NCBI GenBank assembly: GCA_964566925.1
Contig: CAZMIZ010000002.1
Span: forward strand, 72,647 to 136,646
Direction: 5' to 3'
Source of the DNA: an uncultured Gammaproteobacteria bacterium
Lineage (GTDB): Bacteria > Patescibacteriota > Microgenomatia > PFEM01 > DATLAM01
DNA length: 64,000 bases
The notes under the pieces were generated by a model, which ran no database searches, was not told the DNA's origin, and worked only from the letters and a program-made list of their open reading frames with translations. Shown piece after piece: positions 37,355 to 64,000 of this stretch (position 1 is its first letter; the number at the start of each line of letters is the position of its first letter). The position numbers were made by a program, and so were the translations under genes.

Positions 37355-37427
37355 GGCCCCGTCGTCTAGTGGCCTAGGACATCAGGTTTTCATCCTGAAA
37401 ACAGGGGTTCGATTCCCCTCGGGGTCA
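37355..37427 (+). tRNA. tRNA-Glu (anticodon TTC)
   Basis: GGCCCCGTCGTCTAGTGGCCTAGGACATCAGGTTTTCATCCTGAAAACAGGGGTTCGATTCCCCTCGGGGTCA. Anticodon stem TCAGG/CCTGA encloses loop TTTTCAT. The 3' 46 nt are overlapped on the opposite strand by the end of the recombinase ORF. Confidence 0.8.
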
Positions 37428-39091
37428 CACATTGGGACTAAAGAGGAGCCAGAATCGTCTTTTAGTCCGATAAATGGAGCCAATTTTGGTGTTCCAGAAA
37501 CCAATTCTTCGTAGGTAGGCGGTTTTTCAAAGATAAGTCCGAAGTAATCAGCCCTTTTTAAAGGATTTGAGCCTCCCAGGATCAGTTCCTCCAGGTGTTC
37601 CAGAAAGTAGCCGACAAACTCCATCACTCGCTCCATATTGACGTCTTTTTCTTTATTTTCTACTTTGCTGGCTTGCAGATTTCTAATTTCTTTTTCAGTT
37701 TTGACCAGCTCTTCTTCCATGTATTTAATGGCCGTTGCAGACTCAAGGTATTTAATCTTGTCAACGGTTATCTTGGCTAACGATTTAAGCTCTTCAATCT
37801 TCCGGTCTATCTGTTTATTGTCCTTTTGGCTGCTTTCTATTTTATCCTGCCATAAATCAATTACACACTTTTTCAAGTCCTTGACGTATTTTGGTTTGAT
37901 GCCTAAATTGCTGACAAAACCGGCAATGGTGTCTTCAAATTCCTGCTTAGGCACCCGGAAATAATGGCCCCGCTTATTACAGTGATAGGCAGGATAATAT
38001 TTGCCAAGCCTTCCCCGGGAAGCGCTGCCATATAGAGCTTTCCCGCAAATCGGGCACATAACGTATCTTTTGTAGGGAAATTTGGGATTCCTAACCGATT
38101 TATAAAGCAAATGATCGGGCGGCTTTTTCTTCCAGAATTTTATCTGGCCGTTTTCTTCGGAAATGATAATTTTTCCCTTATTAGCTTTATTAAAAGTCTC
38201 AACCGACACCAAGCCCTTAAACTTGCATTTTATCGGCTTGTCTTTAGTCCAGCTTTCAATATTGATGCCGGCATAAATCGGATTTTGAATATATTTCCAG
38301 AGGGCTTTTAAAGACAACGGGCATTCTCCCGCCTGGCCGATTATTTTTGTCCTGTCTTTAGGGTCGCGACGGTAACGCTTTCTGGTTTTAAAACCCAACT
38401 TGTTTAACTTATCAACGATTTCCTGGTCATTTAAGTTACTGCTTGCCCGAAGCTCAAACATCCTAATAATCCATTTTGATTCCTTCGGGTGGGGTTTTAG
38501 GATGACTCTTTTACCATGGGCGGTTTCCACTTTTTCGTTGACATAGCCAAAAGGAGCTTGTCTGACCCTGTAACCCATTCTAACGTATCTAATTTCGGCA
38601 CCAATCATCCTGGTCATGATATCTCTCATCTCGTCTTTGGCCCGCTCTGCTTCCAAAATTTCCGTTTTTTTAGTAGGGTTGTAAACACTCCAGTCGTATT
38701 TGATGTTTAAATGCTCTAAGGTGTTTATTTCCTGACTACTGATGACCCCATAAATATCAACCAGTTTGACATCATACTTGGTCAGTTGCATTTTAAGATG
38801 GTCATAAAGATAAGAACCGCCTCTGGTAAAGCGGTCAATCGATTTGACAATAAATAGCTGGATGTCGTTTTTTGGCTTTTTGCAGTAATCAATCGCTTCT
38901 TGGACCGGCTGCTCTTCTCTGGAAGCGCTCTCCATGAAGATAAAAAACTTTTTAATCTTGATGTTGTGGTTTTCCGCAAACCTTTCGATTTGCTCTTTCT
39001 GGTCTTCCGGTGAATCGCCTTGAAGCCCTTGTTTTAAGGAAGAAATTCTGATGGCGGCAACGGCATTTTCAGGTTTTGGCAGGTTATTCAT
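37382..39091 (-). CDS. Large serine recombinase (resolvase/invertase N-domain + recombinase domain + zinc ribbon + coiled coil)
   Basis: Catalytic Ser context AAIRISSLKQG. Resolvase core includes SIDRFTRG. Recombinase-domain Zn ribbon is CPICGKALYGSASRGRLGKYYPAYHC. A C-terminal coiled coil is present. The ORF 3' end reads through the antisense of tRNA-Glu. Confidence 0.8.
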   Translation of the reverse strand: MNNLPKPENAVAAIRISSLKQGLQGDSPEDQKEQIERFAENHNIKIKKFFIFMESASREEQPVQEAIDYCKKPKNDIQLFIVKSIDRFTRGGSYLYDHLKMQLTKYDVKLVDIYGVISSQEINTLEHLNIKYDWSVYNPTKKTEILEAERAKDEMRDIMTRMIGAEIRYVRMGYRVRQAPFGYVNEKVETAHGKRVILKPHPKESKWIIRMFELRASSNLNDQEIVDKLNKLGFKTRKRYRRDPKDRTKIIGQAGECPLSLKALWKYIQNPIYAGINIESWTKDKPIKCKFKGLVSVETFNKANKGKIIISEENGQIKFWKKKPPDHLLYKSVRNPKFPYKRYVMCPICGKALYGSASRGRLGKYYPAYHCNKRGHYFRVPKQEFEDTIAGFVSNLGIKPKYVKDLKKCVIDLWQDKIESSQKDNKQIDRKIEELKSLAKITVDKIKYLESATAIKYMEEELVKTEKEIRNLQASKVENKEKDVNMERVMEFVGYFLEHLEELILGGSNPLKRADYFGLIFEKPPTYEELVSGTPKLAPFIGLKDDSGSSLVPMCDPEGNRTPVFRMKT

Positions 39092-39277
39092 TTGACTACT
39101 TCCTCAGTTAATTCCTTATTTTGCTCTTCGACAATTCTGTCGACAAGGAAGTTGGCAAATATCTTCATTCGGTCTTCTTTCTTATCCTTTCTCGTCTTAT
39201 TATGCTTTGAAACCCGCTCCTTATTCATTGATTTTACTCTTAACCTAGCCACAAAACTTGTATCCTTAGTTTATTAA

Positions 39278-39295
39278 CTATCCATATATGGATAG
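39278..39295. promoter_or_regulatory. Perfect 18-bp palindrome CTATCCATATATGGATAG between the divergent recombinase and T4CP genes
   Basis: Exact self-complementarity can be read from the sequence. A further TATCC half-site lies upstream (39262-39266) and a TAGTATACTA palindrome at 39363-39372. Candidate operator or recombinase site. Confidence 0.45.
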
Positions 39296-39412
39296 TATAA
39301 CAAGGGTAAAACAGCTTGTCAAGTAGTAAAGATAAAAAGGTTTCGATTTCTTGTTTTATGTAGTATACTATAGCCAACCTGCCTCATAATCATCCTGCCT
39401 GAAGGGTAAATT

Positions 39413-42073
39413 ATGAGGATTTTTGGTGAATTAGCAAACTTTTTTAGAGACAGCTTTGTTTTTACTTCTTCTTTTCAGACTCTACAAAGCAATCTTTCCC
39501 TTAATAAAACCCTGAAGCTGCTACCTATTTCTTTCTTAGGAGACTTGCTTACTATCCTAGCCTTAGCTTTTACCGCCTTTCTGACTCTCTATGCCTTATT
39601 AAAATTATTGCTGGTAAGAAAAGAGCTAAAGCAGAAGTATGTTTTGTTTGAAATCAGGCCATTGACCGAAACCCTGCAAAGCCCGCTTTCCACTCAGCAA
39701 CTTTTTAATCTTATTCATGGTCTAGCCAGACAGCGATCTCTATTTTATAAACTAATGGATGCCTACAAAAGCTATTCTTTTGAAATTGTTTCCACCAAAA
39801 AAGAGGGTATCAGGTATTTGCTGAGAATCAACTGCGAAGACGCAGAATTGGTTAAAAAGAGTCTCCTTTCCTACCTTCCGGGAATTAGTATCAATCGGGT
39901 CAGCGATTATCTGCCAAAAAAACTTAAAAATGACCGATTTAAAATCGCCGACTTTAAGCAATCAAATCAATTTGCTTATCCTCTGAAAAAACAAAAACTG
40001 CTTAAAGAACACGACCCCATTGCTTATATCACCGGCAGTATGACCAAACTGGACAAAGATGAACTGGTTTCTTTCCAAATCGTTGCTTCTCCGGCTAACA
40101 GGCGCTACTTAAAACAGGCAAGGACAATTACCAATTTGATTGCCGCTAAAAGTGACTTGGTAACCGGCTTAAAAACCTTGAAATTAAATCAGCAATTATT
40201 CAGCTCACTTAAATTATCGCTAAGATTTGTTCTCTATTTATTTCTTATTCCCTTTGGGTTTTTGATATTTTTAATCACCGGAGGCAAAGAAGGTCCTCTC
40301 TTACATCTTGGGATTTTGAATCAGAACAGCAGGAAGAGCGATATTTACCAAAAAGAACTTGAAGAAGTAATAAAAGACAAATTAGATCAACCACTTTTCA
40401 AAACTTCTTTGCGCTTGCTAGTCGTCAGTAAAATCCCGAGAAAACAAAGCGAGCAGATTAAAGGTTTTACCTCCGCCCTTTCCTCGTTTAATAATTCCAA
40501 TTACCAGTCGTTAGTTCCTTTTTTTAAGTTTAAACACGGTTTAATTAAACAAATTAAAGCCTATTTATTTAGAAATAGACTGCTTGGTTTATGGGGAAAG
40601 TCGGTTCTATCGGCCTCAGAGGTGGCCGATATTTATCACCTGCCTTTCACCATCAAAACTAAAACAGAAGATTTAGTCAAACAGCACAGCAAGCAACTAC
40701 CGGCGCCGCTCTCTTTAAAAAGGGCCGATAATTTTGATGTCGTCTTTGCCGAAAACTCCTATGGCGGAACGGTCACTAAAATCGGTTTAACCGAAGACGA
40801 AAGAAGAAGGCATATCTATATCCTCGGGGCCACTGGCACCGGCAAGTCAACTTTGCTTTTGTCAATGATTTTACAGGATATTGAAAACAAAAAAGGGCTA
40901 TGTGTCATTGACCCTCACGGAGATTTAATTGAACAAATTCTGCCCGCTATTCCCCAAGAAAGGGTCAATGATGTCATCTATTTTAATCCGGATGATGTTA
41001 GCCATCCAATTGGTCTTAACCTTTTAGAACTGACACCCGGCTTGAATGAAGATGATGCCCTTCGGGAAAAAGAATTTTTGACGGAAAGTATTATTTCCCT
41101 GTTTCACAAAATCTATTCGGAAAAATATTCCGGGCCGAGGATGGAATATATTTTAAGAAACACCATCCATACTGCTTTTACCACTGAAAACTCGACTTTG
41201 TTTACAGTTTATAAACTGTTGATTAATACTCCTTACCGCAAAAGGGTTGTCAGAGGCTTGGATGATGAAGACTTGAGGGATTTTTGGCGCTATGAATTTG
41301 CCAAAGCCGGCGATTACCAGAAGGTTAAAATGATTTCACCGATTACTAATAAAATCGGCCGCTTCCTTTTTTCGCCAACCGCCAAAAGAATTTTGGAACA
41401 AGAGAAATCCAGCATCAACTTTGATGAGATTTTATCTTCGGGAAAAATCCTGCTCTGCAATGTTTCCAAAGGCAGGATCGGTGAAGACTCTTCCGAAGTC
41501 TTCGGGATCCTAATCATGACCAAAATCCAGCTGGCGGCTTTAAAAAGAGCCAGAACAGCCGATAAAGAGAGGAGAGACTTTTATCTCTACGTTGACGAAT
41601 TTCAGAATTTTGCCACCCCCGCTTTCGCGGAAATCCTGTCGGAAGCCAGAAAATATCGACTGAATGCCATTATGGCTCACCAAACCACTTCCCAGCTTGA
41701 AGATAAATCTTTGGTTAATGTTACTTTGGCTAATACGGGAACGGTAATTTGTTTTCGAACCGCCAACCCAGAAGATGAAAAATTGATTTTACCCCAATTC
41801 TCGCCATACGTCGAAAAAGGCGAAATTGCCAGTCTGCCATCGTTTAATTTTTACATCAAAATCAGCGCCCTTAACCCGGAAGAGCCCTTTTCGGGGATAA
41901 CCACGCCCGTCTTTACCAATTTGGATAATCAAAGAACCAATCAAATCATCGAGCGGTCAAGAAAACTCTACACCTTGCCCTATAAAAAACAAGTGAAGAA
42001 AGATAAAAAAATGAACAAAGAGTTGCAGCCTAAGCTAATTACCAAGACTCAAACTGGAAGCCTCCTGCCCTAA
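39413..42073 (+). CDS. Type IV secretion coupling protein (VirD4/TraG/TraD-like ATPase) with N-terminal TM segment
   Basis: N-terminal hydrophobic LLTILALAFTAFLTLYALLKLLLV. Walker A HIYILGATGTGKSTLL. Walker B-like LYVDEFQNF. The 886-aa length is typical of T4CPs. Confidence 0.55.
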   Translation: MRIFGELANFFRDSFVFTSSFQTLQSNLSLNKTLKLLPISFLGDLLTILALAFTAFLTLYALLKLLLVRKELKQKYVLFEIRPLTETLQSPLSTQQLFNLIHGLARQRSLFYKLMDAYKSYSFEIVSTKKEGIRYLLRINCEDAELVKKSLLSYLPGISINRVSDYLPKKLKNDRFKIADFKQSNQFAYPLKKQKLLKEHDPIAYITGSMTKLDKDELVSFQIVASPANRRYLKQARTITNLIAAKSDLVTGLKTLKLNQQLFSSLKLSLRFVLYLFLIPFGFLIFLITGGKEGPLLHLGILNQNSRKSDIYQKELEEVIKDKLDQPLFKTSLRLLVVSKIPRKQSEQIKGFTSALSSFNNSNYQSLVPFFKFKHGLIKQIKAYLFRNRLLGLWGKSVLSASEVADIYHLPFTIKTKTEDLVKQHSKQLPAPLSLKRADNFDVVFAENSYGGTVTKIGLTEDERRRHIYILGATGTGKSTLLLSMILQDIENKKGLCVIDPHGDLIEQILPAIPQERVNDVIYFNPDDVSHPIGLNLLELTPGLNEDDALREKEFLTESIISLFHKIYSEKYSGPRMEYILRNTIHTAFTTENSTLFTVYKLLINTPYRKRVVRGLDDEDLRDFWRYEFAKAGDYQKVKMISPITNKIGRFLFSPTAKRILEQEKSSINFDEILSSGKILLCNVSKGRIGEDSSEVFGILIMTKIQLAALKRARTADKERRDFYLYVDEFQNFATPAFAEILSEARKYRLNAIMAHQTTSQLEDKSLVNVTLANTGTVICFRTANPEDEKLILPQFSPYVEKGEIASLPSFNFYIKISALNPEEPFSGITTPVFTNLDNQRTNQIIERSRKLYTLPYKKQVKKDKKMNKELQPKLITKTQTGSLLP

Positions 42074-42218
42074 AAATTGTCCTCGCGCTTTGGGACAAAA
42101 AATTGCTGAATTTAGCCTTAAAAATGACGATAATCTCTACCCCTTATCCCTTATAAATAAGGAGGAGAAACGTAAACCAGTCAAGAGTTTGGGAAAATAA
42201 ACCAACACAAACGACCTT

Positions 42219-42998
42219 ATGAATCAAACAAAAAAGCCAACCTCAAAGCAAATTGAAATCCTTATTCTTTTATATCGCTTCCGCTTTCTCAATCGCCGCC
42301 ATCTCCAAAAATTTCTCAACCACCAAGACCATCGACGAATCAACGCCTGGCTGAAAGATCTCACCGAAAAAAAATATCTTGGTCGAATCTACTCCCGAAA
42401 ATTTGGAGAAAACACCCAGCCAGCCATTTACTTCCTGAAATCAAAAGCGGCTGGTGTTTTGAGAAAAAAACCAGAGATTAACCAATCCCTGCTTAACCGA
42501 ATCTATCGGGAAAATCTACGCTCAAGAAAATTCATTAACCACTGCCTTTTCTTGGCTGATATCTATTTTCATCTGAACCAGCTTTGTTCAGAAGACAAAG
42601 CCAAGCTTCAGTTTTTCCATCGGACCGATTTAAGCAGCCATGATTATCTACCCGAACCCCTGCCTGATTTGTATTTTGTCATCCAGGAACCGAGGGGGGA
42701 AGCCAAAAGGTATTTCTTGGAAATGTTCGTCAGGAAGACTCCCCGTTATGCCTTGCGGCATCGTCTTTTTAGATTTTTTAATTATTATCAATCCAATCTC
42801 TGGGAAAAAACCACCCGCCATCCCTTCCCGACCATTCTTTTGGTCTGTTCCGACAGGTACATGCAGGCCTATTTGAATAAATTCATCAAAGAAACCCAGG
42901 AAGACGAAGAAAATTACGAAATTCAATTCTTTTTAACCACCATAGGAAAAATAAGGAAAGAGGGAGTAGGCAAGAAGGTCTGGAAAGCAATCGTTTAA
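42219..42998 (+). CDS. Replication-relaxation (Replic_Relax, PF13814-like) family protein
   Basis: N-terminus TSKQIEILILLYRFRFLNRRHLQKFL matches the Replic_Relax wHTH signature (L-T-x-x-x-x-x-I-L-x-x-L-x-x-x-R-x-L-x-x-x-x-L-x-x-L). Confidence 0.5.
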   Translation: MNQTKKPTSKQIEILILLYRFRFLNRRHLQKFLNHQDHRRINAWLKDLTEKKYLGRIYSRKFGENTQPAIYFLKSKAAGVLRKKPEINQSLLNRIYRENLRSRKFINHCLFLADIYFHLNQLCSEDKAKLQFFHRTDLSSHDYLPEPLPDLYFVIQEPRGEAKRYFLEMFVRKTPRYALRHRLFRFFNYYQSNLWEKTTRHPFPTILLVCSDRYMQAYLNKFIKETQEDEENYEIQFFLTTIGKIRKEGVGKKVWKAIV

Positions 42999-43025
42999 CC
43001 ATCAGGCAAAAAGATAGAAAGCGCC

Positions 43026-44060
43026 TTATTTTTCTTTTAACTGGTAGTAACTGGCTTTCCCTTTTCCCTTTCTTTCGATCAACCCCAAGTCAATCAGTTT
43101 TTTGAAATCCAGGTTTCTGGTCGCCCTGGCCCGGTCAGTCAGTCCGGCATAATCGCGATCGGAGATATAACCCTTTTGGCTGATGAATTCTAAAATCCGT
43201 TGATGGTAAGGCTTCAGTTCTGTTTTGGGGCTGACCGAAGTTTCGGGCAGGATTTTTTTCACCCGCAAGAGTTCGTCGATGATCCCGTCCGTAAAGTATT
43301 CCAGCCAGTCGGTAAAATCAATGGCCTTAACCAGGTCATAATAATTGCCCAGCACCCCAATCTTCTTAAAGTAGTTGGTTACGTTTCGGTTATAGTAATT
43401 CTCGAAACTGAAAAGGTTAAAAGTATCAAGGCCCATGTCTGCTAAAAGAACTTTGGTGGCCAACCTGGCCGTCCGGCCGTTGCCGTCCATAAAGGGATGA
43501 ATAATCACCAACTGCTTATGAAAGATACCGGCGATGATCAGGGGGTCAACCAAACCTTTATTTTTGACCACAAATTTAATCAGTCCGTCCAGCAATTGGT
43601 CAAGGTCCTGGTGATCGGGTGGCCAATAGACGGTTTTACCGGTCCGGGGATCATTGACAAAAACAGGTTCCCGTCTTAATTTTCCCAGTTGATCGCGGGG
43701 AGCTAACTGATTAAGGATTTGCCGGTGAACAGACAAAATCAGCTGAAGATCAAAGGCAATCCGGCCGCTTTTCAGTTTTTTATTTAATTCCTTCAGAGCT
43801 TGATTGTAATTAATGATCTCCTGCTCGCTCCTTCTTAAATTTTTAGGCTGGGTTTTAAGAATCTGCTTGACGTCGGTCAGCGGCAAGGGGTTGCCTTCAA
43901 TGCTGGTTGAAGCAAAGGCAGAAGTTTCCCGAGCCTTTCTTTCCAGCTCATAAAGAACCACCTTCGGAAATCTTCTATTATTCAGGTCCAAAACAATCGA
44001 ATTTATCTGTTTGATCTTGGCCAGAAGCCTGTCGGTAATGGTATATTGAGGCTCAAACAT
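43026..44060 (-). CDS. Fic/Doc family protein (AMPylator-type)
   Basis: Canonical Fic motif HPFMDGNGRTARL (HPFx[D/E]GNGR) at about residue 190. Confidence 0.8.
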   Translation of the reverse strand: MFEPQYTITDRLLAKIKQINSIVLDLNNRRFPKVVLYELERKARETSAFASTSIEGNPLPLTDVKQILKTQPKNLRRSEQEIINYNQALKELNKKLKSGRIAFDLQLILSVHRQILNQLAPRDQLGKLRREPVFVNDPRTGKTVYWPPDHQDLDQLLDGLIKFVVKNKGLVDPLIIAGIFHKQLVIIHPFMDGNGRTARLATKVLLADMGLDTFNLFSFENYYNRNVTNYFKKIGVLGNYYDLVKAIDFTDWLEYFTDGIIDELLRVKKILPETSVSPKTELKPYHQRILEFISQKGYISDRDYAGLTDRARATRNLDFKKLIDLGLIERKGKGKASYYQLKEK

Positions 44061-44635: not shown

Positions 44636-44786
44636 TTTTAAAATTTTTTTGGTGGAGGCCTTGCCTCCGATAGCTGATCAACCGCACAGCTGGCGAAGTG
44701 AAGTCAAGGGCAAGCGAAGCGCCGTTCATTGAAAACCCTTGACGAGCGAAGACAGATGTGCCAAGAAAATGAAAAAATATAACAGA

Positions 44787-55061: not shown

Positions 55062-57772
55062 TTTTTACTTTTTCCCTCAACTAGTTCTGTCTCCTCCGGC
55101 GTGAGGTTGTAGAGTTTGTAAATTAGTTGGTCGGTTTCATCCTGAAGTTTTGCAATTTCACTTCTCAATCTAGTCCATTTATCTGAATTTTGTGTGGTCT
55201 TTAATAATTCCTCATTAATTTTGATCATTCTATTCACAAGTTTAAAGAGACTTTTGTTTTTTGTATTGTATTTAGGAAGTGGTAAATTCCTTACATCGTT
55301 GACCAAAATTTTAGGGAATAACCCCTTTTTAGCTTTAGGAGATTTATTTAAATTATACCAACCCATTAGTGTAGAGTTCACAATACCCAGTAATACCTTC
55401 AGGGAATAATTGCTATTTTTCTTTTTTATAACATTAATAATAGAGGGTGTATTATAATACTCTTCTTTTGTCCAAGAACAAATTAGATTTACACCGGTAA
55501 TTTCTCGTACAAGAACCCTCTCCTCTCTAAAAAATTTTGGTTCTCTCGGTGCTGCAAGCCAATTTCCATAGCTTATCCATGACTTTCCATTCCACTTTAT
55601 AGAATAGCGCTTAACGTCACCACCCTTTAATTCCTTTTTGTAGGTAGCATCCTTTTTATGATCGGCATGCCAAATTCTATTTTTAATTGTATATTCATCA
55701 TGTCCTCGATATTTATCATAAGGAATTAAACCTTGAGAAACTTCAAAATAGTCGCTAACTCTAGCTCCTACTGATTCAATTTTCTTTAAAATGCGATCCT
55801 TTTCTGCAGAGTAATCAAATAGAGCTAGCCAATTATCTAACTCTTTCTCTAAAACCTCTTTTCCGAAGGCATTAAATAATTCAAACAATTGCTTAGTCCT
55901 GTCATACTTGAAGAAAGTGACATTCTTGCCGCTTTCGAACCTATCTTTTTTCGCTATTACAATACAGTTTCTAACAGAAGCGTCTTTGAAAGTCTGATCC
56001 TCTGTCAAATCTATAATTGAAATTATTTTGAAATTTTTAAGCAACTTCTCTCTGAAACCTTTTCCATAGAATGTCGATAAAAAGGTGTTGGGTATTATAT
56101 AAGATAAGCAACCTCCTTGCTTCAAAAGAGACAATCCCCTAGAAATGAAATAGATATAGCTTTCATAATCAGGAACCATAGGGTAGACATTACTTAAGTA
56201 TGACTTATCTTCTTGGGTAAAACTTGCCCCATAGGGAGGATTTCCTATGATTACGTCAAACCCTTCTTGTTTAAATACCTCTGGAAATTCTTCTTTCCAG
56301 TTGAAGGGTTTTTTCTCCTGCCAGTTTTTTCCAAAATACTTTTTGAGTTTCTTTTCGGTGCCAGAAATAAGCGAGTTGCCAACTTTAGTGTTGTCGGAAA
56401 GTAACGGTAGTTTATGGTTTGGTTCAAGCGCTTTTAGCAGAAGATTTAAGCGGGCGATTTCAATGGCTTGAGAATCAAGGTCAACACCATAAATATTATT
56501 CTTTAAGATATTGTATTTTCTGAAAGCTGCATGCGGTCCAGATTTCTCTTGAGCTTTTTCTTCGGCTAGTTTCTCATCCAGCAAAGCAAAGGCCTTAATA
56601 AGAAAGGAGCCGCTACCACAAGCAGGGTCCAGAATTTTGATATTCTCAATTTCTTTTAATGACTTTTCTTTTAAAGCAACACCAAGCGTATTTTGAACAA
56701 TATAATCAACGATATGAGCCGGTGTATAGTAAATTCCTTGTTTCTTCCTTTTAGCCCCATTCACTAATCCTTTTCCTTGAACAAAACCGAGATACTGTTC
56801 ATAAATGGAACCTAAAACATCAGCGTCGATGGCGGCAAAATTATATTTAACTCCTCTTTCTTTATCCGCATAAAGATCATTAATGATTTGCTCAAAAGGA
56901 GTCCCTTCGGTGTCGAGCTTCTCACAAAGATGCTCCAAAAACAGATTGCTATTATATTTTCTGTCAAAATCTTTAAAGATTGGCTTTAAAGCCTGCATGA
57001 AGTTATCGGGTTTTCGATTATGGGTAATCCACTTTCGAAGAGCAGGCCAAAGTATTTGGGGTTCAAGTTTACGATCTTCACAAGTCCGAATGAAGATAAA
57101 TCTATCCAAAACTCTTTGAACCGCTTCATCAACATCGGATTCATCAACTTCGGGATTATATCTCTTGAAGTATTTTCTTAAAAGCTCTCTCCATTCGAGG
57201 AGATCAGCCGCCAGTTTTTCACTAACTTTAAGCCTTTTAGCTTTGATGCCCCACTTCTCAGCTTGTTTATCAAGCTCACCTTTCTCAATGCTTTCCCTGG
57301 AGAGAAACCAAAGGTCATCCAGGCGAGTAAGGAATTTATCATAAGCAAATTCTAAATTTGGTTTTGGGGTGTCCACTAACCATTCTGAATTAAAAAGCTT
57401 TAAGCCTTTGAAATCGGTTAAAACTACCCAAGGAATACCTTTGTTCCAGCCATAGGTGACTGCCTGCTTTGCCCATTCAACTTTATCAAGGTCAACTTTT
57501 AGGGATTTTGCTTCAAGGAGAAATTGGGGAATGTTGTTAAGACGAAAAGAATAATCAACTTTTCCCTTAACAGCAACTTCTTCTTCAACTACCTCTCGGT
57601 CAGTAAATTCGTTGTAGACATCCCAACCTAAGGCTTGAAAGAATGGCTCAATGAAAACTCTTCGAGTATCTGCCTCATCATATCTTCTTAACTGTTTTGC
57701 CTTTTTTACTCTTTCATATTTTTCAATGAGCTTTTTGATTTCCTTTTTAGCCTGTTCTCTAGAAGTCGCCAT
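55058..57772 (-). CDS. Type IIG restriction-modification enzyme (fused PD-ExK endonuclease + gamma-class N6-adenine methyltransferase + target-recognition domain)
   Basis: N-terminal nuclease VDYSFRL...LLEAKSL (D...EAK). MTase motif I ILDPACGSGSFL. Motif IV IIGNPPYGASF. About 300 aa of C-terminal target-recognition domain. 904 aa total. Confidence 0.7.
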   Translation of the reverse strand: MATSREQAKKEIKKLIEKYERVKKAKQLRRYDEADTRRVFIEPFFQALGWDVYNEFTDREVVEEEVAVKGKVDYSFRLNNIPQFLLEAKSLKVDLDKVEWAKQAVTYGWNKGIPWVVLTDFKGLKLFNSEWLVDTPKPNLEFAYDKFLTRLDDLWFLSRESIEKGELDKQAEKWGIKAKRLKVSEKLAADLLEWRELLRKYFKRYNPEVDESDVDEAVQRVLDRFIFIRTCEDRKLEPQILWPALRKWITHNRKPDNFMQALKPIFKDFDRKYNSNLFLEHLCEKLDTEGTPFEQIINDLYADKERGVKYNFAAIDADVLGSIYEQYLGFVQGKGLVNGAKRKKQGIYYTPAHIVDYIVQNTLGVALKEKSLKEIENIKILDPACGSGSFLIKAFALLDEKLAEEKAQEKSGPHAAFRKYNILKNNIYGVDLDSQAIEIARLNLLLKALEPNHKLPLLSDNTKVGNSLISGTEKKLKKYFGKNWQEKKPFNWKEEFPEVFKQEGFDVIIGNPPYGASFTQEDKSYLSNVYPMVPDYESYIYFISRGLSLLKQGGCLSYIIPNTFLSTFYGKGFREKLLKNFKIISIIDLTEDQTFKDASVRNCIVIAKKDRFESGKNVTFFKYDRTKQLFELFNAFGKEVLEKELDNWLALFDYSAEKDRILKKIESVGARVSDYFEVSQGLIPYDKYRGHDEYTIKNRIWHADHKKDATYKKELKGGDVKRYSIKWNGKSWISYGNWLAAPREPKFFREERVLVREITGVNLICSWTKEEYYNTPSIINVIKKKNSNYSLKVLLGIVNSTLMGWYNLNKSPKAKKGLFPKILVNDVRNLPLPKYNTKNKSLFKLVNRMIKINEELLKTTQNSDKWTRLRSEIAKLQDETDQLIYKLYNLTPEETELVEGKSKK

Positions 57773-57871
57773 TTGGCTTTAATTTTACCACAATACCCCT
57801 CTCAACTAAATAGAATTTGACTTTTACTTTACAATTTGCTATAAGCTAGTTAGTTGAAAGTCAGCGTTTGG

Positions 57872-57894
57872 CTGCCCGAGAGGGCAGTTTTTTT
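57872..57894 (+). terminator. Terminator-like hairpin CTGCCC-GAGA-GGGCAG + T7 upstream of the pilin gene
   Basis: 6-bp GC-rich stem and T7 tract on the plus strand, 33 nt before the AAGGAGGTGAG SD of the pilin gene. No plus-strand gene lies upstream, so it may act as an insulator or attenuator. Confidence 0.35.
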
Positions 57895-57926
57895 ATTTAT
57901 CTCCTGCCGATTAGCAAAGGAGGTGA

Positions 57927-58256
57927 GTGATGAGAATCTTGCTGACGCTGCAATCTTTTGTCTTAACGGCTTTAATTTTTGCTGCCCAAGTTCAGGCCCA
58001 AGCTGACGACGTTTCCAAAGTCCAAAACTTCATGACCAACATTATTCAGATCATGGTCACTCTGGCCGGAGTTCTGGCCGCCCTTTTCTTTGTCTGGGGC
58101 GGGGTCGGCTATATTACCAGTACAGGCAACCCCGAGAATTTGGAAAAATCAAAAAAGACGATTTTTTACTCGGCTATCGGCTTGGCCGTTACCCTGGGAG
58201 CCTATGTCCTGGTCAATATTGTCACCCAGACGGCGCAGAGTGCTTTTGGCCAATAA
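57927..58256 (+). CDS. TrbC/VirB2-family pilin precursor
   Basis: Signal peptide plus two hydrophobic helices. IMVTLAGVLAALFFVWGGVGYITSTGNPENLEKSKKTI is the typical VirB2/TrbC layout. A strong SD (AAGGAGGTGAG) precedes it. Confidence 0.6.
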   Translation: MMRILLTLQSFVLTALIFAAQVQAQADDVSKVQNFMTNIIQIMVTLAGVLAALFFVWGGVGYITSTGNPENLEKSKKTIFYSAIGLAVTLGAYVLVNIVTQTAQSAFGQ

Positions 58257-58272
58257 TTAACGACAAAAAACA

Positions 58273-59559
58273 ATGGTTGTCCTAGCAGTTTTTTTAACTG
58301 CCTTAGTCTTCCTTCTCAATCCTCCTTTGGCCTTCGCCCTTGAACAATATCCCGAAATCCAATCTTTCACCGGCGACCTGATCGCCAACCTTTCCATTCT
58401 GGCTTCGGTTTTCGTCCTCTTCTTCCTCATCCGCGGCGGCTATTTGTATCTCACCTCCAGCGGCAATCCGGAGGCCCTGGAAGACGCCAAAATAACCATC
58501 AGGAATGCCCTCATCGGCTTGGTTTTAATTCTTTCGGCCAGTACTTTCTCTTCAATCCTAACGACTTCCTTCACCACCCCTTCGCCAGGCACCGAGACCA
58601 GCCAGATCGAACTGGCGCCATTGGAAACGGTCGAACCCGAAGACGGTCTCACCCAGGTCTTGACCGAAGCGATTGCCGGCTTTTTAAGGAACATCATCCA
58701 GAGCGCCACCAAGCCCTTGACCGACAGCGTCATTTCCTTTTTAACCACCACGCCTTTGGTGGCCACCAATCGGTCCATCTTCAATTTTTGGCTGATCATT
58801 CTGGGAATCACCGATTCGCTTTTTGTCTTGGTGATTATCCTCCTCGGCTTTCAAGTGATGAGCGCCACCACTTTCGGTTTCGAAGAGGTGAAGCTGAAAA
58901 AACTACTCCCTCGAATTGGCCTGGCTTTCCTTTTGGCCAACGTTTCCATTTTTATGGTCGACTGGGTGCTGCGGTGCAACAATGCCTTGGTTGCCGCCGT
59001 TCTCAATGCCACCGGCGGCTTGAACCAGGCCTGGATTGAGAACGCCTTTAACCCGCCGGTGATGACCATGGAGAGCGTCCTGGTGATTACCCTGATTTTT
59101 GGCGTCCTCTTTATTATCATCACCGTCGTCCTGCTCCTTTTTTATATCAGCCGTTTAATCATTATTGCCTTGGGGGCGGTCCTTTCGCCTTTAATCTTTA
59201 TGCTTTGGGCTATTCCCAGGCTGGCCGATTTTTCCGAAATTGCCATCAAAAGCTATCTGACGACGATTTTTTCCGTTTTTATCCATGTGGTGGTCATCCA
59301 GCTGGCGGCCTCATTCTTAACCCTGCCAGGCGAGTCGGGAGGCTCGGGCCTGATGGCCGTCCTCATCGGCATCGGCTTGATGTTTACCTTGATTAAAACC
59401 CAATCCGTCGTTTATCAATTGGTTTTTTACAACACCGGCCGGGCGGTCTTTAAAAAGGTGGGCGGCCAAATCGTCAACGTTCTTCAGGCCAAGCAGACCG
59501 AAGAAGCGGCTCTTGGCGAAGCCCAGGTTAAAACGCCGAGAAAGGTAGTCAACGCATGA
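58273..59559 (+). CDS. VirB6/TrbL-like polytopic membrane protein with N-terminal pilin-like domain
   Basis: N-terminal LASVFVLFFLIRGGYLYLTSSGNPEALEDAKITI is paralogous to the upstream pilin (GG-x-x-Y-x-T-S-x-G-N-P-E-x-L-E-x-x-K-x-T-I). At least six further TM helices follow, as in VirB6. Confidence 0.5.
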   Translation: MVVLAVFLTALVFLLNPPLAFALEQYPEIQSFTGDLIANLSILASVFVLFFLIRGGYLYLTSSGNPEALEDAKITIRNALIGLVLILSASTFSSILTTSFTTPSPGTETSQIELAPLETVEPEDGLTQVLTEAIAGFLRNIIQSATKPLTDSVISFLTTTPLVATNRSIFNFWLIILGITDSLFVLVIILLGFQVMSATTFGFEEVKLKKLLPRIGLAFLLANVSIFMVDWVLRCNNALVAAVLNATGGLNQAWIENAFNPPVMTMESVLVITLIFGVLFIIITVVLLLFYISRLIIIALGAVLSPLIFMLWAIPRLADFSEIAIKSYLTTIFSVFIHVVVIQLAASFLTLPGESGGSGLMAVLIGIGLMFTLIKTQSVVYQLVFYNTGRAVFKKVGGQIVNVLQAKQTEEAALGEAQVKTPRKVVNA

Positions 59560-60056
59560 AAACAAACCCCATTCCGGCTCAAGTAACCACGGTCGAGGAT
59601 AAAATCGCCGCCAATCTGAGCCTGACCCAGCTCATTCTCCTTTTGGCCCCGCTTTTTATCAGCGTCTTTGTTTTTGCCGTCCTGCCCGAGAGGATGTATT
59701 TTAGCCTTTATAAAATCATTCTTATAATTCTGTCTCTGATTATTTTCTTAACCCTGGCCATTAGGGTCAAGGAACGAATTGTTTTGACCTGGCTGATTCT
59801 GCTGGTCGCTTACTATTTAAGACCCCATCTTTTTCTCTTTGACAAAAATGATGATTACCTGCGAAAGGAAAAACACCCGCCGGACGACGAGATTGAAAAA
59901 ACCGCCAGTCGCCAACCAATTCCGGCCAAAAAAGAAAAAAAGAATCACTTATCAATTCTGAATCTGATTCAGCTGGAGAACCTGATGAACGCCAGAAATA
60001 CCAGAATGTCAATTAAATTCAGTCAAAAAAGGAGGCTCAGATTAAACCGCTTTTAA
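59556..60056 (+). CDS. Small two-TM membrane protein, VirB3/PrgI-like position
   Basis: Two TM helices (LILLLAPLFISVFVFAVL and IILIILSLIIFLTLAI). Start is coupled to the VirB6-like gene stop. The call rests on position and topology only. Confidence 0.3.
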   Translation: MKTNPIPAQVTTVEDKIAANLSLTQLILLLAPLFISVFVFAVLPERMYFSLYKIILIILSLIIFLTLAIRVKERIVLTWLILLVAYYLRPHLFLFDKNDDYLRKEKHPPDDEIEKTASRQPIPAKKEKKNHLSILNLIQLENLMNARNTRMSIKFSQKRRLRLNRF

Positions 60057-60112
60057 ATAATAAAGTCTCCTCCAGGAGACAAATTAAAATCAAGGAAGTC
60101 CGAGACGGGATT

Positions 60113-60667
60113 TTGGTTCTGCCGGAAAACAAATATCGGGTGGTGGTGGAAACCTCGGCGATTAACTTTGAACTTAAAAGTGAGGCCGAACAAGACGCTT
60201 TGATTGATAATTTCCAAAATTTCATCAATGCCCTGCCCTGCCCGATCCAGATTTTAATCCGGGTCCGCGAAGTGGAGATTGACCACTATCTCGAGGTTTT
60301 CAACAGCAGAAATAATCACGAAACCAGCAAGCTTTACCGCCAGCAAATCAAACACTACGGCCAGTTTGTCAAGAAATTGGTTAAGGGCAATAAAATCCTT
60401 TCCCGGCGCTTTTACCTGGTCATTCCCTACGAACCGGAGCCGGAAAAAAACGACTTTAATTTGATTAAGGAGCAAATCAATCTCAGCCTGGATATCATTG
60501 CCAAGGGCTTGGAGCGGCTGGGGATGAAAACCAGAAACCTCAACACCCTGGAAATTCTCGAACTTTTTTACAGTTTTTATAATCCCGGGGGCTCTAAAAC
60601 CCAGCCCATCAAGGAGAAAACTTATCAGCTTTTAGCAAAAAATAAAGATGTTATTCAAACTCCCTAA
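60113..60667 (+). CDS. virB4: VirB4/TraC-family ATPase, N-terminal domain (separate ORF, or 5' part of a frameshifted virB4)
   Basis: VVETSAINFELKSEAEQDALIDNFQNFINALPCPIQILIRV is the conserved VirB4 N-domain pattern. It ends at 60667, overlapping the next ORF by 20 nt in a different frame. Confidence 0.55.
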   Translation: MVLPENKYRVVVETSAINFELKSEAEQDALIDNFQNFINALPCPIQILIRVREVEIDHYLEVFNSRNNHETSKLYRQQIKHYGQFVKKLVKGNKILSRRFYLVIPYEPEPEKNDFNLIKEQINLSLDIIAKGLERLGMKTRNLNTLEILELFYSFYNPGGSKTQPIKEKTYQLLAKNKDVIQTP

Positions 60668-62408
60668 CTTTAAAAAAGGCAGAAAACGGGGTCAAAAAAC
60701 CATCGAGCTCTCGTTTGGCGAACAGGATCAGGTGGACTTAATCTCCTATGACGGCCTTGAGGAGTACCAAAACTACCTCAATCTGGGCGGCAGATATCTG
60801 CGGACGCTTTTCATTTCCGGCTACCCTTACGTGGCGACCACCGGCTGGCTGAACAACCTCGTTAATTTCAATCACGACATCGACATTGCCTATCACCTGG
60901 AGCAGATCGATTCCAAGATCTCCCTGCCCAAGCTTAATCGAAAAATTACCGAATTGGAATCAACCCGAAGAGTCCTCCAGCAGCAGGGAAAAATCATCGG
61001 CCCGGAAGTGCTTGACCCCTTGAAATCGGCCGTTGATTTGAAAAACAGAATCCTGCGGGGCCAGGAAAAGCTTTTCCAGGTCTCCATCTACATCCACTTG
61101 ACGGCCGACTCTCTGGTGGAATTGGAAAAACTGACCACCTTGGCGGAGACGGTGCTGGCGACGAGATTGTTCTACACGAAAACGGCGGTTTTCCAGCAGC
61201 TTGAGGGCCTCCAGTCCATCCTGCCTCGAGCGGAAAACCTGCTTGACCAAAAAAGAAATTTGGACAGTTCTTCGGCGGCCCTCACTTTTCCTTTTACTTC
61301 ATCCGAGCTGGTCCAGGAAACCGGTATTTTATACGGCGTCAATCTTTCCAACAATTCCTTGGTGATGATTGACCGCTTCAGTCTCAATAACGCCAACAGC
61401 ATCGTTTTTGCCCAATCCGGCTGCGGCAAGAGCTACGCGGCCAAGGTGGAAATCCTGCGCCAATTGATTCAAAAGACGAAAGTGATCGTCATCGACCCGG
61501 AGCGCGAATACCAGCAGCTTGCCCGCTCTTTAGACGGCACCTACATCAAACTCTCGGCCAAATCCAAGGAAAAGATCAATCCTTTTGATTTCTCGGTCAG
61601 CTCCTTTGGCCAGGGCAACAACCTGGTCGAGCATATCCAGGATTTGACGGAGATCGTTTCCTTAATGGTCGAAGGCCTGACTTCGGAAGAAAAAGCGATT
61701 GTTGATAAAGCGATTGTCAAAACTTACAAAAACCTTGGCTGGGCAATCCACGGCCGAAAAAAAGGCAAAAGATACCCGTTGATGAAGGATTTATACCAAA
61801 CCTTGAAAAAAGACCGGCAGAGAAAACTCTGCGTCCGCCTGGAAAAATACGTCAAAGGATCGCTGGCCAATGTCTTCAATCAGCAAACCAATATCAAGCT
61901 CGACAACCGCTTGATTATTTTTGACATTAAGGATCTGCCCGAATCTTTACGCCAAATCATGATTCTGATTATCTCCAATTATGTTTATAACCAGGTCAAA
62001 TCCGATCCCCAAAAACGATTGCTGGTGATTGACGAAGCCTGGATTCTTTTGGAGCATGAGGAAAGCGCCCGCTTTATTGCCGGCTTGACCAGAAGAGCGC
62101 GCAAATACTACCTGGGGGTGAACATCATCTCCCAGGCGGCCAACGACTTTCTGGGCAACGAATACGGCCAGGCGATTGCCTCCCAAGCTTCGCTGCGGAT
62201 TCTGATGCGCCAAGACACGACGACGATTAAAAAAGTGGTTGAGGAGTTCAAGCTCAGCGAATACGAGCAGAAATTCCTGCTGACTTGCGATAAAGGCGAG
62301 GCGATTGTCATTGCCGATCAAAACCATGTCGCCCTGAAAGTGGTCGCCTCGGAAAAAGAACACCCCCTGATCACCACTGACCCAGCCGAAAGATACTCCC
62401 TGCGATGA
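60648..62408 (+). CDS. virB4: VirB4/TraC-family ATPase, central and C-terminal ATPase domains
   Basis: Walker A AQSGCGKSYAAK. Walker B LLVIDEAWILLE. Also YLGVNIISQA and the middle-domain RYLRTLFISGYPYVATTGWL. Confidence 0.7.
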   Translation: MLFKLPNFKKGRKRGQKTIELSFGEQDQVDLISYDGLEEYQNYLNLGGRYLRTLFISGYPYVATTGWLNNLVNFNHDIDIAYHLEQIDSKISLPKLNRKITELESTRRVLQQQGKIIGPEVLDPLKSAVDLKNRILRGQEKLFQVSIYIHLTADSLVELEKLTTLAETVLATRLFYTKTAVFQQLEGLQSILPRAENLLDQKRNLDSSSAALTFPFTSSELVQETGILYGVNLSNNSLVMIDRFSLNNANSIVFAQSGCGKSYAAKVEILRQLIQKTKVIVIDPEREYQQLARSLDGTYIKLSAKSKEKINPFDFSVSSFGQGNNLVEHIQDLTEIVSLMVEGLTSEEKAIVDKAIVKTYKNLGWAIHGRKKGKRYPLMKDLYQTLKKDRQRKLCVRLEKYVKGSLANVFNQQTNIKLDNRLIIFDIKDLPESLRQIMILIISNYVYNQVKSDPQKRLLVIDEAWILLEHEESARFIAGLTRRARKYYLGVNIISQAANDFLGNEYGQAIASQASLRILMRQDTTTIKKVVEEFKLSEYEQKFLLTCDKGEAIVIADQNHVALKVVASEKEHPLITTDPAERYSLR

Positions 62409-63010
62409 ATCCCTTTTTAGTAACGACTCTTTTTTCTTTCAAGAAAGAGTTTTTTTATGTTCTCCTGGCTTTCCTTCTGGTCATTTCAATGCCCCTTGTC
62501 GGGGTGATTATTCTTACCCGAACCGGTTTGGATTTTGTTTCCGAACGATTGGTGGCGATTAATGAGGTCACCAACGAAGTTCAAATCCTAAATCCGCTAG
62601 ACGGCAGCGTCTACAAAACCATCAAGGGTCCCTTCGTCTGGCCGGTGACGGGAATCATTACCCTCGAGTTCGGCGAATCAAGCCGCTGGCAGCTCTTCCA
62701 TACCGGAATTGACATCGCCAATCCCGAAGGTAAAAATGGCGACCCGATCACCCCCTTTATGCCCGGGACGGTTGTTTATGCTGGTCAAATCTCCTGGGGG
62801 TTTGGCAAACACGTAATCATCGATCACGGCGATAATCTCGCTTCCATCTACGCCCATTTGGAGACCATCTGGGTGGAAGTAGGCCAGGCAGTCAAACCGG
62901 GCGAGATTATCGGCACCGAGGACAGCACCGGCTGGTCAACCGGACCGCATCTGCACTTTCAAATAAACGTCTTTGGCATCCCGGTTAATCCGAGGATATT
63001 TTTGAAGTAG
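62405..63010 (+). CDS. M23 family metallopeptidase (LytM-like) with N-terminal TM anchor
   Basis: HTGIDIA (HxxxD), YAHL and HLHFQI (HxH) are M23 zinc ligands. TM is VLLAFLLVISMPLVGVIIL. Start is coupled to the virB4 stop. Confidence 0.75.
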   Translation: MNPFLVTTLFSFKKEFFYVLLAFLLVISMPLVGVIILTRTGLDFVSERLVAINEVTNEVQILNPLDGSVYKTIKGPFVWPVTGIITLEFGESSRWQLFHTGIDIANPEGKNGDPITPFMPGTVVYAGQISWGFGKHVIIDHGDNLASIYAHLETIWVEVGQAVKPGEIIGTEDSTGWSTGPHLHFQINVFGIPVNPRIFLK

Positions 63011-63041
63011 AGCCATGCTGATAATTCTTATTATTGGAGCC

Positions 63042-63938
63042 TTAACTTTTCAACCAAAGCCAGATTTGATTTTTAAGTCTTTGGGTCAGCTCAAAGCTGT
63101 TTGCGTGCGAAAGGTAACCCAGATAAGATTGAAGGGATTGTTCGAAAGCAGGGGAACCAATCCTCTCTCTTAATTTTTCAAAGATTCTTCTCTTCGTTTT
63201 GGTTCTCGGCAGACGGTAATGCGGCAGAACAACATAGCCTAAAAATTCGATTCCCCAGTCAAGTTTTCGGAAAATAATTTTTTTGGAATGCATTTCAAGC
63301 TTCAACTCCTTTTCTAAAAACTCCTGCAAGGGTCCAATGTAGCTTTCCAGCTCTTTTTTGTTTTGGGAGAGAAAGACAAAATCATCCGCATAACGAAGAT
63401 AATATTTAACCTTCAGTTGATGCTTGACCAAATGGTCAAGCCTGTTCAGATAAATGTTGGCAAATATTTGACTGGTTAAATTGCCAAGAGGAATCCCTTG
63501 GCCGCGCCCCCTGTCTGAATTAAAACTATGTATAACCTGAGAAAGAAGCCGGAGAATATTCTTGTCTTTAATTCGCTCCCGAAGCAGGTTTTTAAGGATC
63601 TGGTGGTCAACACTGGCAAAGAATTTCTTGATATCACACTTTAGAGACCAACAATTTCTCGTATAATTTTGGGAAACAATTCTCGCAAACTTTTCAAGCC
63701 TGGCGACGGCCTTATGCGTCCCTTTGTCAAGACGGCAAGAATAAGAATCAAAAATAAAGGTATGGTCGGTGGCTTTATACAAGAAGGTGTAAAGCAAATG
63801 ATGCAAAATTCTGTCTTCTACGCCTGCCTTGTGGATGTGCCTCTTCTTGGGGTCGTGAACATAAAAGGATTGGTAGTCACCATGTTGATAAGTTTGGGAA
63901 ATAAGTTTTCGGCGAAGATTAAAGAGGTTATCCTCCAA
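63042..63938 (-). CDS. Reverse transcriptase of the diversity-generating retroelement (DGR) type
   Basis: RT motifs read FDSYSCRLDKGTHKA, GIPLGNLTSQIFANIYLN (DGR-typical I/LGxxxSQ in place of QGxxxSP) and YLRYADDFVFL (YxDD). 298 aa with no maturase or endonuclease domains. Confidence 0.55.
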   Translation of the reverse strand: MEDNLFNLRRKLISQTYQHGDYQSFYVHDPKKRHIHKAGVEDRILHHLLYTFLYKATDHTFIFDSYSCRLDKGTHKAVARLEKFARIVSQNYTRNCWSLKCDIKKFFASVDHQILKNLLRERIKDKNILRLLSQVIHSFNSDRGRGQGIPLGNLTSQIFANIYLNRLDHLVKHQLKVKYYLRYADDFVFLSQNKKELESYIGPLQEFLEKELKLEMHSKKIIFRKLDWGIEFLGYVVLPHYRLPRTKTKRRIFEKLRERIGSPAFEQSLQSYLGYLSHANSFELTQRLKNQIWLWLKS

Positions 63939-64000
63939 ATTTAGTTCAAACGCCTGAACGTCTCTCTTTCTCTTTTTGCCTTTCTTAAATCCGTCCCACG

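Follow-up and report, generated by a model that had tools for sequence, protein, structure and literature searches.

The stretch of DNA analysed here (the window) covers 64,000 nucleotides of contig CAZMIZ010000002.1, positions 72,647 to 136,646, from a genome which GTDB places in the Patescibacteriota. An earlier note had described its right-hand part as a mobile element integrated at a tRNA-Glu(TTC) gene, with a serine recombinase, conjugation genes and defence cargo, and the comparative data given below support that description. The tRNA gene is overlapped on the opposite strand by the gene of a 569-aa large serine recombinase (LSR), as seen with ARAGORN, Rfam and the Pfam domains. The overlap with the tRNA amounts to 47 nt when the stop codon is included; the overlap itself had been recognised correctly and only its length, given as 46 nt, needs correction. 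The genes listed previously were all found at the positions assigned to them, namely those for a VirD4-type coupling protein (T4CP), a Replic_Relax protein, Fic and DUF2958 proteins, nuclease and restriction-modification (RM) enzymes, the pilin/VirB6/VirB4/M23 block of a type IV secretion system (T4SS) and a reverse transcriptase (RT) (Table 1). The flank to the left of 37.3 kb is made up of housekeeping genes (PGM, holA, RuvC and tRNAs), and base composition does switch sharply between modules, the GC content being 33-37% for the defence cargo, 45-51% for the T4SS block and ~41% elsewhere.

Table 1. Features in and beside the element, numbered from the first letter of the window
Feature	Position	Strand	Remarks
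tRNA-Lys(ttt), unoccupied, outside the element	36851..36925	+	Adjoins RuvC; orthologous tRNA in L048 holds a sister element
tRNA-Glu(ttc), integration target, B arm of attL	37355..37428	+	ARAGORN and Rfam agree
Inferred crossover core TCAC	37425..37428		Spans discriminator and first would-be CCA base; from attL/attR/attP comparison in relatives
P' arm of attL, ACATTGGGACTAAAG...	37429..37475	+	Element DNA begins directly behind the tRNA; lies within the terminal codons of the LSR gene (opposite strand)
LSR, integrase, 569 aa	37382..39091	-	Last 15 codons and stop inside the tRNA
Small open reading frame (ORF), 46 aa	39088..39228	-	Overlaps LSR start codon by 4 nt
T4CP, VirD4-type, 886 aa	39413..42073	+	Divergent from LSR
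Replic_Relax protein (PF13814), 259 aa	42219..42998	+	Winged helix and PD-(D/E)XK-like domain
Fic-domain protein, SoFic-like	43026..44060	-	Accessory; domain match
DUF2958 protein	44079..44417	-	Backbone operon; domain match
73-aa ORF	44414..44635	-	Same operon as DUF2958 (44079..44635); translation
Conserved non-coding structured region, two hairpins	44647..44760	+	Diverged counterpart of the GGGGTGAGTTTTGCAAGGG...CCCTTGCAAAATGAGGGG motif
Variable cargo region 1	44798..57772		Backbone to T4SS; two unknown ORFs first
Alpha/beta hydrolase	46353..47162		Cargo region 1
Shedu SduA	47436..48830		Pfam SduA_C 70.4 bits (cut-off 27); 13 PADLOC SduA models
310-aa unknown ORF	between SduA and Cas4-like nuclease		Cargo region 1
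Cas4-like PD-(D/E)XK nuclease	49906..50664		Cargo region 1
1194-aa protein	50674..54258	-	No match in Pfam, NCBIfam, PADLOC
Schlafen/AlbA_2 protein	54255..55061		Cargo region 1
Type IIG RM enzyme	55058..57772		PADLOC REase_MTase_IIG, E = 2.3e-118
T4SS (mating-pair formation) block	57805..63010	+	Profile matches; conserved module
Pilin	57927..58256	+	T4SS block
Pilin-VirB6/TrbL-like	58273..59559	+	T4SS block
PrgI/VirB3-like	59556..60056	+	T4SS block
TrsD-like N-terminal VirB4 piece	60113..60667	+	T4SS block
VirB4, CD1110 family	60648..62408	+	NF045971 348.8 bits (cut-off 325)
M23 peptidase	62405..63010	+	T4SS block
RT, 298 aa	63042..63938	-	Generic profile matches

In the LSR, Pfam recognises both the Resolvase domain (38.3 bits, cut-off 23.3) and the Recombinase domain (28.9 bits, cut-off 21.1). 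Residues R15, S17, D86, R87 and R90 are invariant in 22 homologs, and we take them to be the equivalents of R8, S10, D67, R68 and R71 of gamma-delta resolvase. C346, C349 and C371 are likewise invariant and H370 is at least 90% conserved, which gives a CxxC...HC motif, and the AlphaFold2 (AF2) model has long helices at 400-478. Foldseek aligned this model over its full length (~560 columns) to serine-integrase/att complexes and to Bxb1 with E values of 1e-15 to 1e-12. Sequence and profile searches of the PDB with the LSR matched nothing and the family is thus a divergent one; NCBIfam gave only a weak XisF match. The model and the conserved positions point to a divergent yet complete large serine recombinase with intact catalytic residues, and recombination between attP and attB is its putative activity. 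Its homologs fall into more than 1,700 clusters at 60-93% identity, named mostly as Patescibacteria. At the position of the 46-aa ORF an ORF of 48-58 aa was called in the related loci L039, L040 and L042, and it may code for a directionality factor or a regulator.

The same core recurs in three unrelated long contigs with different chromosomal neighbourhoods. In each of them a small ORF and the LSR gene diverge from genes for a T4CP, which carries DUF8128 and T4CP domains, and for Replic_Relax, and each time a tRNA-Glu overlaps the 3' end of the LSR gene. A metagenome scan added 80 loci. Among the 87 related loci, 80 were evaluable. An opposite-strand tRNA gene was present at the LSR 3' end in 74 of the 80, with 12 anticodons; the tRNAs used are those for Glu (ttc, ctc), Lys (ttt, ctt), Arg (tcg, tct), Gln, Asp, Ser and Ile. 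The T4CP adjoins the LSR in most loci. When 68 sequences were aligned on the tRNA end, the register of the junction was found to be constant (..CAC NNNN TGGGAC). The overlap between LSR and tRNA is a hallmark of the family. Serine integrases are gene-disrupting enzymes with unique sites. The junction had been called a classic tRNA-integrase junction, a description that does not fit, since tRNA 3' ends are the targets of tyrosine recombinases, while serine recombinases as a rule integrate inside genes (review PMC5704250).

It is highly improbable that the locus is a prophage or another non-conjugative island, or that the ORF has been extended into the tRNA by chance. LSRs are common as phage integrases and a gene with a phage metallopeptidase domain lies in the chromosomal flank, but scans of the window detected no capsid, terminase or tail genes, and no relatives of the LSR occur in a viral collection of 2.9 million viral contigs. 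The overlap comes back at 74 of the 80 evaluable loci with its register unchanged, and these readings are already effectively refuted.

It was observed that near-identical element ends sit on different tRNAs in the window (Glu-ttc), L048 (Lys-ttt) and L046 (Lys-ctt). The LSRs of these three are 92-95% identical among themselves, with 93% between the window and L048. Four further groups show the same element end at different tRNAs, among them L074/L079/L081/L083, L089/L095 and L057/L050. L048 shares the RuvC/holA/PGM neighbourhood with the window, and there the element core (window 37406..43002) is 86.8% identical at the nucleotide level as against 66-67% for the chromosome. The element of L048 lies in the tRNA-Lys(ttt) adjoining RuvC and that of the window in the next tRNA instead, and the tRNA-Lys(ttt) of the window serves as a natural empty-site comparator. 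L104 and L114 show 99.8% identity over 11.7 kb of element, after which the flanks are unrelated, and the two elements occupy different tRNA-Glu genes. The family is evidently mobile and has moved recently. It should be noted here that this evidence comes from the relatives and concerns the family, not the window's own copy. The genome collection was also scanned with RuvC for relatives with an empty site, and the nearest ones (L001, L002) stop at RuvC and give no junction.

In the window, the P' arm of attL contains an imperfect hairpin followed by a T-run. It is exactly the same as that of L048, which follows a tRNA-Lys(ttt), and near-identical to that of L046, which follows a tRNA-Lys(ctt). 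When individual sequences were folded, 16 of the 31 elements had a strong hairpin after the tRNA, whereas that of the window is weak (z = -0.66 for the tested segment). RNAalifold returned no consensus structure, and the hairpin has no common register. The hairpin with its T-run resembles a terminator that the element supplies to the tRNA.

The 3' end of tRNA-Glu is not repeated anywhere in the window when up to 3 mismatches in 23 nt are allowed, which agrees with the earlier statement that no direct repeat could be found; likewise, neither a repeat of the tRNA-Glu 3' end nor the GGGTCAC core was seen on the element side of the window, L040 or L042. The right end was found in relatives. Homologs of VirB4 led to three contigs: L126, with a VirB4 98% identical to that of the window; L128, on the same 74.5-kb contig as L039, the LSR of which is at the same RuvC-tRNA-Glu locus as in the window; and L129, the remainder of the compact L053 contig. 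Beyond M23, genes for an XRE-type helix-turn-helix (HTH) protein and a PLDc_2 protein are common to L128, L129 and L049, which occupy three different tRNAs, and the similarity of their right ends stops at one point, after the terminal motif GGTGTTCCACCCAnGGGACAnnGGGCTCAC. This motif is degenerate in L128 (..CTCGT). It resembles the 3' end of a tRNA: where a tRNA has the T-loop GTTCGA it has GTTCCA, and its counterpart of the acceptor end is CGGGCTCACCA. The distance from GTTC to ..TCAC is 22 nt in tRNAs as against 27 nt in the P arms of the relatives. In serine integrase sites the zinc-ribbon-domain motif of attB stands nearer the centre by 5 bp than that of attP (Rutherford et al., PMC3783163), and judged by this offset the tRNA has attB geometry and the terminal motif has the geometry of attP (P arm).

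The sequence common to attL and attR is only 6-7 bp long, TCACCAA in L053/L129 and GCTCAC in L049, and therefore the crossover must fall within TCAC. An att repeat of 15-50 nt had been expected; the relatives share only these few base pairs with the core TCAC, and their right end is a mimic of the tRNA and not a copy of it. A crossover deeper inside the tRNA, in which the P arm supplies the acceptor strand, was considered and rejected as the tRNAs of attL retain their own acceptor sequence; that the attR of a Glu-inserted element is Lys-like also rules it out. Comparison of the P-arm ends of L102 (~1612..1645) and L118 (~3103..3135) with those of L049 (118..147) and L129 (20621..20650) showed that the mimic ends like tRNA-Glu (GGGGTCACCA) or like tRNA-Lys (CGGGCTCACCA) according to lineage, whatever the tRNA occupied.

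Junctions of attP type were found in three short contigs, L061, L102 and L118. The terminal motif of L061 is fused at ...GGGCTCACCA|ACTGG... to the 3' end of an LSR gene, in the position usually taken by the tRNA, and the nearest counterpart of this LSR is the one in L053 (78% identical). The LSR end of L102 and L118 abuts a tRNA-like fragment with the 27-nt spacing, and in L102 the PLDc_2 and HTH genes of the right-end module come directly beyond the junction of the P-like arm and the LSR. Such junctions are expected of excised circles or of tandem copies. The LSR ORF itself crosses the crossover site (window 37382..37428; L061 2800..2850; L053 11665..11728), and the last 10-20 residues of the enzyme have two versions: after integration they are encoded antisense to the tRNA (..GDPxGNRTP..), whereas in the attP form it is the P arm that codes for them (..GEPAVPQVE..). 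The C-terminal tail of the enzyme is thus altered by integration. The right-end motif was detected neither in the window as a whole nor near 44.8 kb, and the element would therefore run past 64 kb, where the other att site had indeed been predicted to lie. An exact look-up of the window's LSR and RT, intended to extend the contig beyond this point, found neither on record.

Our data indicates that the window from 37.4 to 64 kb is most probably the left and central part (26.6 kb) of an ICE (integrative conjugative element), which belongs to a large family specific to Patescibacteria. The window contains a mating-pair-formation T4SS of its own with a coupling protein, and an integrase beside a defined attL at a chromosomal target; movement between sites was seen at the level of the family. 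In the proposed mechanism, the divergent LSR would recombine the attP of the circular element with the extreme 3' end of the tRNA, which would act as attB. The crossover, including the exact dinucleotide exchanged, would be placed within TCAC at the discriminator/CCA position, so that the tRNA would stay intact and only its 3' trailer would be swapped for element DNA. The arm of attB read by the enzyme would be the T-arm together with the 3' strand of the acceptor. These parts are common to many tRNAs, which could explain the use of Glu, Lys, Arg and other tRNAs by related elements. The P arm of attP would be the mimic of a tRNA 3' end, its GTTC lying 5 bp more distant from the core, an arrangement also seen with other serine integrases. 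The excised element could be processed by Replic_Relax, perhaps at a conserved non-coding motif, and the processed DNA would be passed by the VirD4-type T4CP to the element's own T4SS, which is of the MPF-FATA-like type, for conjugative transfer. Defence cargo would be held in two variable regions, one between the backbone and the T4SS and the other between M23 and the right end, and the right end of the window's element (HTH, PLDc_2 and P arm) would lie past 64 kb.

It could be argued that only the backbone of ~7.4 kb (37.4-44.8 kb) is mobile, as an integrative mobilisable element (IME) which uses a chromosomal T4SS in trans. The mobile unit would then comprise the LSR, the small ORF, the T4CP and Replic_Relax together with the DUF2958 operon, and would include the non-coding motif as well; the defence genes and T4SS block to the right of it would be part of the chromosome, a defence island placed beside a tRNA by chance. 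We consider this unlikely. Just the LSR and Replic_Relax were found at L070, L124 and L085, housekeeping-looking genes follow soon after the backbone in L042 and L119, and in Patescibacteria 148 of 5,713 T4CP genes are near virB4, which is itself often near dnaA (PMC12102498). However, the complete elements with both ends known, of ~20.1 kb (L053/L129) and ~41 kb (L039/L128), have the T4SS enclosed between attL and the tRNA-mimic attR. Three elements, each at a different tRNA, have the HTH-PLDc_2 module on the far side of M23, L102 joins this right-end module straight to the LSR end, and the right-end motif is missing near 44.8 kb in the window. L049 keeps M23 beside a truncated LSR: at 4434..4460 its M23 gene (79% identical to that of the window) abuts an LSR gene without the first 59 residues, and L049 is an internal deletion derivative in which T4CP through VirB4 have been removed and both element ends kept. 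The close relative L126 has the T4SS block in another chromosomal context. The T4SS block (window 57805..63003 in this comparison) behaves as a discrete module. Its nucleotide identity is 89% with L126 and 77% with L128, and the sequence on either side of it differs in each genome. For these reasons the alternative mentioned in the earlier note, that the T4SS is merely chromosomal, is disfavoured.

Several points weigh against an ICE of this kind. No right end of the element was seen within the 64 kb of the window. In most loci no T4SS gene occurs within 10 kb of the LSR, and among the listed VirB4 clusters that are at least 71% identical no contig is as long as the 406-kb contig of L048, which has the closest sister element; these two observations also favour mobility of the backbone only. 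The T4SS block of L126 abuts pyrF and has no right-end module. In view of L126, the T4SS-poor loci and the VirB4 listing, some members may lack a T4SS of their own or be decayed, and the family probably includes mobilisable and degraded members. The LSR of L061 carries an in-frame TAA, and the attP-type junctions could represent tandem copies and not circles. When an inverted copy of P' was sought as attR in the window and the complete relatives, the result was no better than the control; P' is not an obvious inverted P and the half-site model is thus incomplete. Finally, no canonical MOB relaxase family is present in the window, and Replic_Relax is a candidate for that role by its fold.

A further reading is that the window copy is derived from an ICE but has become fixed, with its right end or its ability to excise lost, and that the island now serves the host, for example in an epibiotic lifestyle. 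Decayed or rearranged relatives do exist, as L049 with its N-terminally truncated LSR, L126 and L128 with its ..CTCGT terminus demonstrate, and in L039 the LSR is parted from the real tRNA by tandem pseudo-sites; moreover, according to evidence cited in PMC12102498, one Saccharibacterium needs its T4SS genes, though not the T4CP, to grow epibiotically. On the other hand, the LSR, T4CP, Replic_Relax and VirB4 of the window are full-length and the catalytic residues of the LSR are intact, the attL junction is perfect and in the same register as in recently moved relatives, and the LSR has 92-93% identity with copies that occupy other tRNAs. A fixed island is quite improbable, and the window copy would then be an intact ICE.

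Processing of the DNA would depend on Replic_Relax. In its AF2 model (pLDDT 91.7) the N-terminal part is like a MarR winged helix, and the best matches of the C-terminal domain are proteins of the XisH family (2okf/2inb), whose fold is restriction-endonuclease-like. Conservation covers D137, P149-D150, E/D168 and several tyrosines but does not extend to the canonical lysine, and sequence and profile searches of the PDB with Replic_Relax found no match. From the modelled fold it is a plausible candidate for a nicking or relaxase-like enzyme. Upstream of the small-ORF/DUF2958 operon there is a conserved non-coding motif, with a short hairpin followed by GGGGTGAGTTTTGCAAGGG ... CCCTTGCAAAATGAGGGG..CCCC and a variable loop. 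Copies of it, all on the minus strand, were located in L042 (3960..4080), L053 (6010..6190), L087 (1620..1800), L103 (3580..3760) and L119 (4600..4780); the window is conserved with L048 over 44120..44763, and Rfam has no family that matches the window's copy. The motif is a candidate origin of transfer (oriT), regulatory site or small RNA. The idea that the GGGGTGAGTTTTGCAAGGG motif marks the element end in L042 and L119 was rejected as it is internal in L053. Homologs of DUF2958 are on the element side in ~25 loci and the operon region is 86% identical to L048 in nucleotide sequence. Fic has homologs in L078 and L103, and none is present at this position in L048.

Cargo region 1 is absent in L053/L129, where the T4SS follows directly after the backbone, and it has other contents in L126 and L128. 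The Shedu SduA protein belongs to its family by virtue of the DUF4263 nuclease domain. The type IIG enzyme is a single polypeptide with an MmeI-like N-terminal nuclease, an Eco57I/N6 methyltransferase and TaqI_C domains, as is proper to that type; PglX and DrmMI match it far less well, and partner genes of BREX or DISARM were not identified. The 1194-aa protein, which is in an operon with the Cas4-like nuclease, Schlafen/AlbA_2 and the type IIG enzyme, may be an undescribed defence component. The RT had been called a retroelement enzyme of the diversity-generating (DGR) type, a label that finds no support: its profile matches are generic, group-II-like and UG/DRT-like, all below curated cut-offs, and no direct repeats (template/variable) of at least 50 nt were found near the homologous RTs of L079, L083, L103 and L085 or in the window from 60 to 64 kb, where the search stopped and the DNA upstream of the RT lies beyond. 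The RT is probably cargo, in the variable region that separates M23 from the right-end module, and its position is taken by a type I RM system in L129.

The family can be compared with several known systems. Firmicutes ICEs and IMEs with an LSR (Tn5397/Tn4451-type with TndX/TnpX, and streptococcal ones; PMC5704250) are similar in having a serine integrase and very short flanking repeats, a VirD4-type T4CP, a monoderm MPF-FATA-like T4SS with CD1110-family VirB4, and a modular backbone with cargo hotspots. However, they insert within protein-coding genes or with low specificity, whereas the family of the window is found at the last bases of tRNAs that are left intact, has a tRNA-mimic attP and Replic_Relax in place of a canonical MOB relaxase, and resides in Patescibacteria. 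With tRNA islands and ICEs that use a tyrosine integrase it has in common the tRNA 3' end as target, a tRNA that remains functional, an adjoining integrase and a defence-rich cargo, but it uses serine chemistry, shares 6-7 bp in place of a 15-50 nt repeat, and one lineage can use several tRNA species. Phage serine integrases (A118/LI, Bxb1, phiC31, SPbeta) agree with the LSR in fold, domain order, catalytic residues and the 5-bp offset between attB and attP, and the small upstream ORF could correspond to their directionality factor. In contrast to them, the LSR of the window is very divergent in sequence, its target is a tRNA end, P and P' are not evidently symmetric, and its ORF runs over the crossover so that the last residues differ between the integrated and attP forms. 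The T4SS of Patescibacteria (PMC12102498, Microb Genom 2025) has the same pilin, VirB6-like, PrgI/VirB3, TrsD-like plus VirB4 and M23 components and the same MPF-FATA ancestry, but in the family of the window the T4CP belongs to an LSR module that is demonstrably mobile, and complete relatives have the T4SS within the same element.

In the literature searched no published description of such tRNA-end serine-recombinase elements was found, and the window element is apparently an example of an undescribed variant of ICE. A systematic survey of LSRs does not mention tRNAs in its main text (PMC10083194). The T4SS of Patescibacteria has been reported to be nearly ubiquitous, MPF-FATA-like and chromosomal, with few relaxases, and probably co-opted for non-conjugative roles; the same study left the T4CP genes remote from virB4 unexplained and does not mention integrases or tRNAs (PMC12102498). 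It is quite possible, at a little short of an even chance, that the T4SS of Patescibacteria and the thousands of 'orphan' T4CPs together form a phylum-wide conjugative or mobilisable family. Its serine integrase would be of a new kind, one that takes the universal T-arm/acceptor end of tRNAs for attB and has a tRNA-end mimic in attP, and Replic_Relax would be its non-canonical relaxase with a nuclease fold. In that case genes in the candidate phyla radiation (CPR) would flow to a major extent by conjugation, contrary to the proposal of co-option. The module puts T4CPs and a candidate relaxase in recently moved elements and makes the hypothesis of conjugation in CPR directly testable. The tRNA-end LSR family extends the repertoire of its enzyme class and is a natural test of the model of attP/attB discrimination, and an integrase native to CPR and specific for tRNA ends could be an integration tool for organisms that are hard to manipulate.

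Some minor observations were made at individual loci. In L126, 12369..13995, directly after M23, matches the pyrF region of the window (9425..10939) at 81% identity, and in the window this region is 53 kb from the T4SS block and beside a 12-tRNA array; L126 is either a rearranged or decayed element or one with a different insertion history. The dense array (10962..11978, minus strand, local GC 58%) has none of its 12 tRNAs occupied by an LSR element, although His-adjacent Arg and Lys tRNAs are used among the relatives (L046). In L039 (11560..14000) four GGGGTCAC sites stand in tandem between the real tRNA-Glu and the LSR, and a 127-nt repeat (79% identical) brackets a 1.75-kb insert with ORFs of 376 and 81 aa; this att region looks like the product of serial insertions or accretion. 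L088 was considered as an attP form and rejected, its site being disrupted by a second element with a canonical LSR of 503 aa (2543..4054, minus strand; Resolvase, Recombinase, Zn_ribbon_recom) at the same tRNA, and the first element keeps only a 3' fragment of the tRNA beside it. The ends of tRNAs are hotspots for more than one LSR family. In the chromosomal flank of the window, the gene with the 'putative phage metallopeptidase' domain (35257..35631, minus strand) lies between holA and RuvC; since it is kept in L048 (67% identical), it is probably native to the chromosome and not left over from a prophage. Two small GIY-YIG ORFs flank the unoccupied tRNA-Lys(ttt) of the window (36536..37252), the second of which, as listed from a GTG start, overlaps the 3' end of this tRNA by 33 nt, and GIY-YIG homologs also adjoin the target tRNA in L104 and L078.

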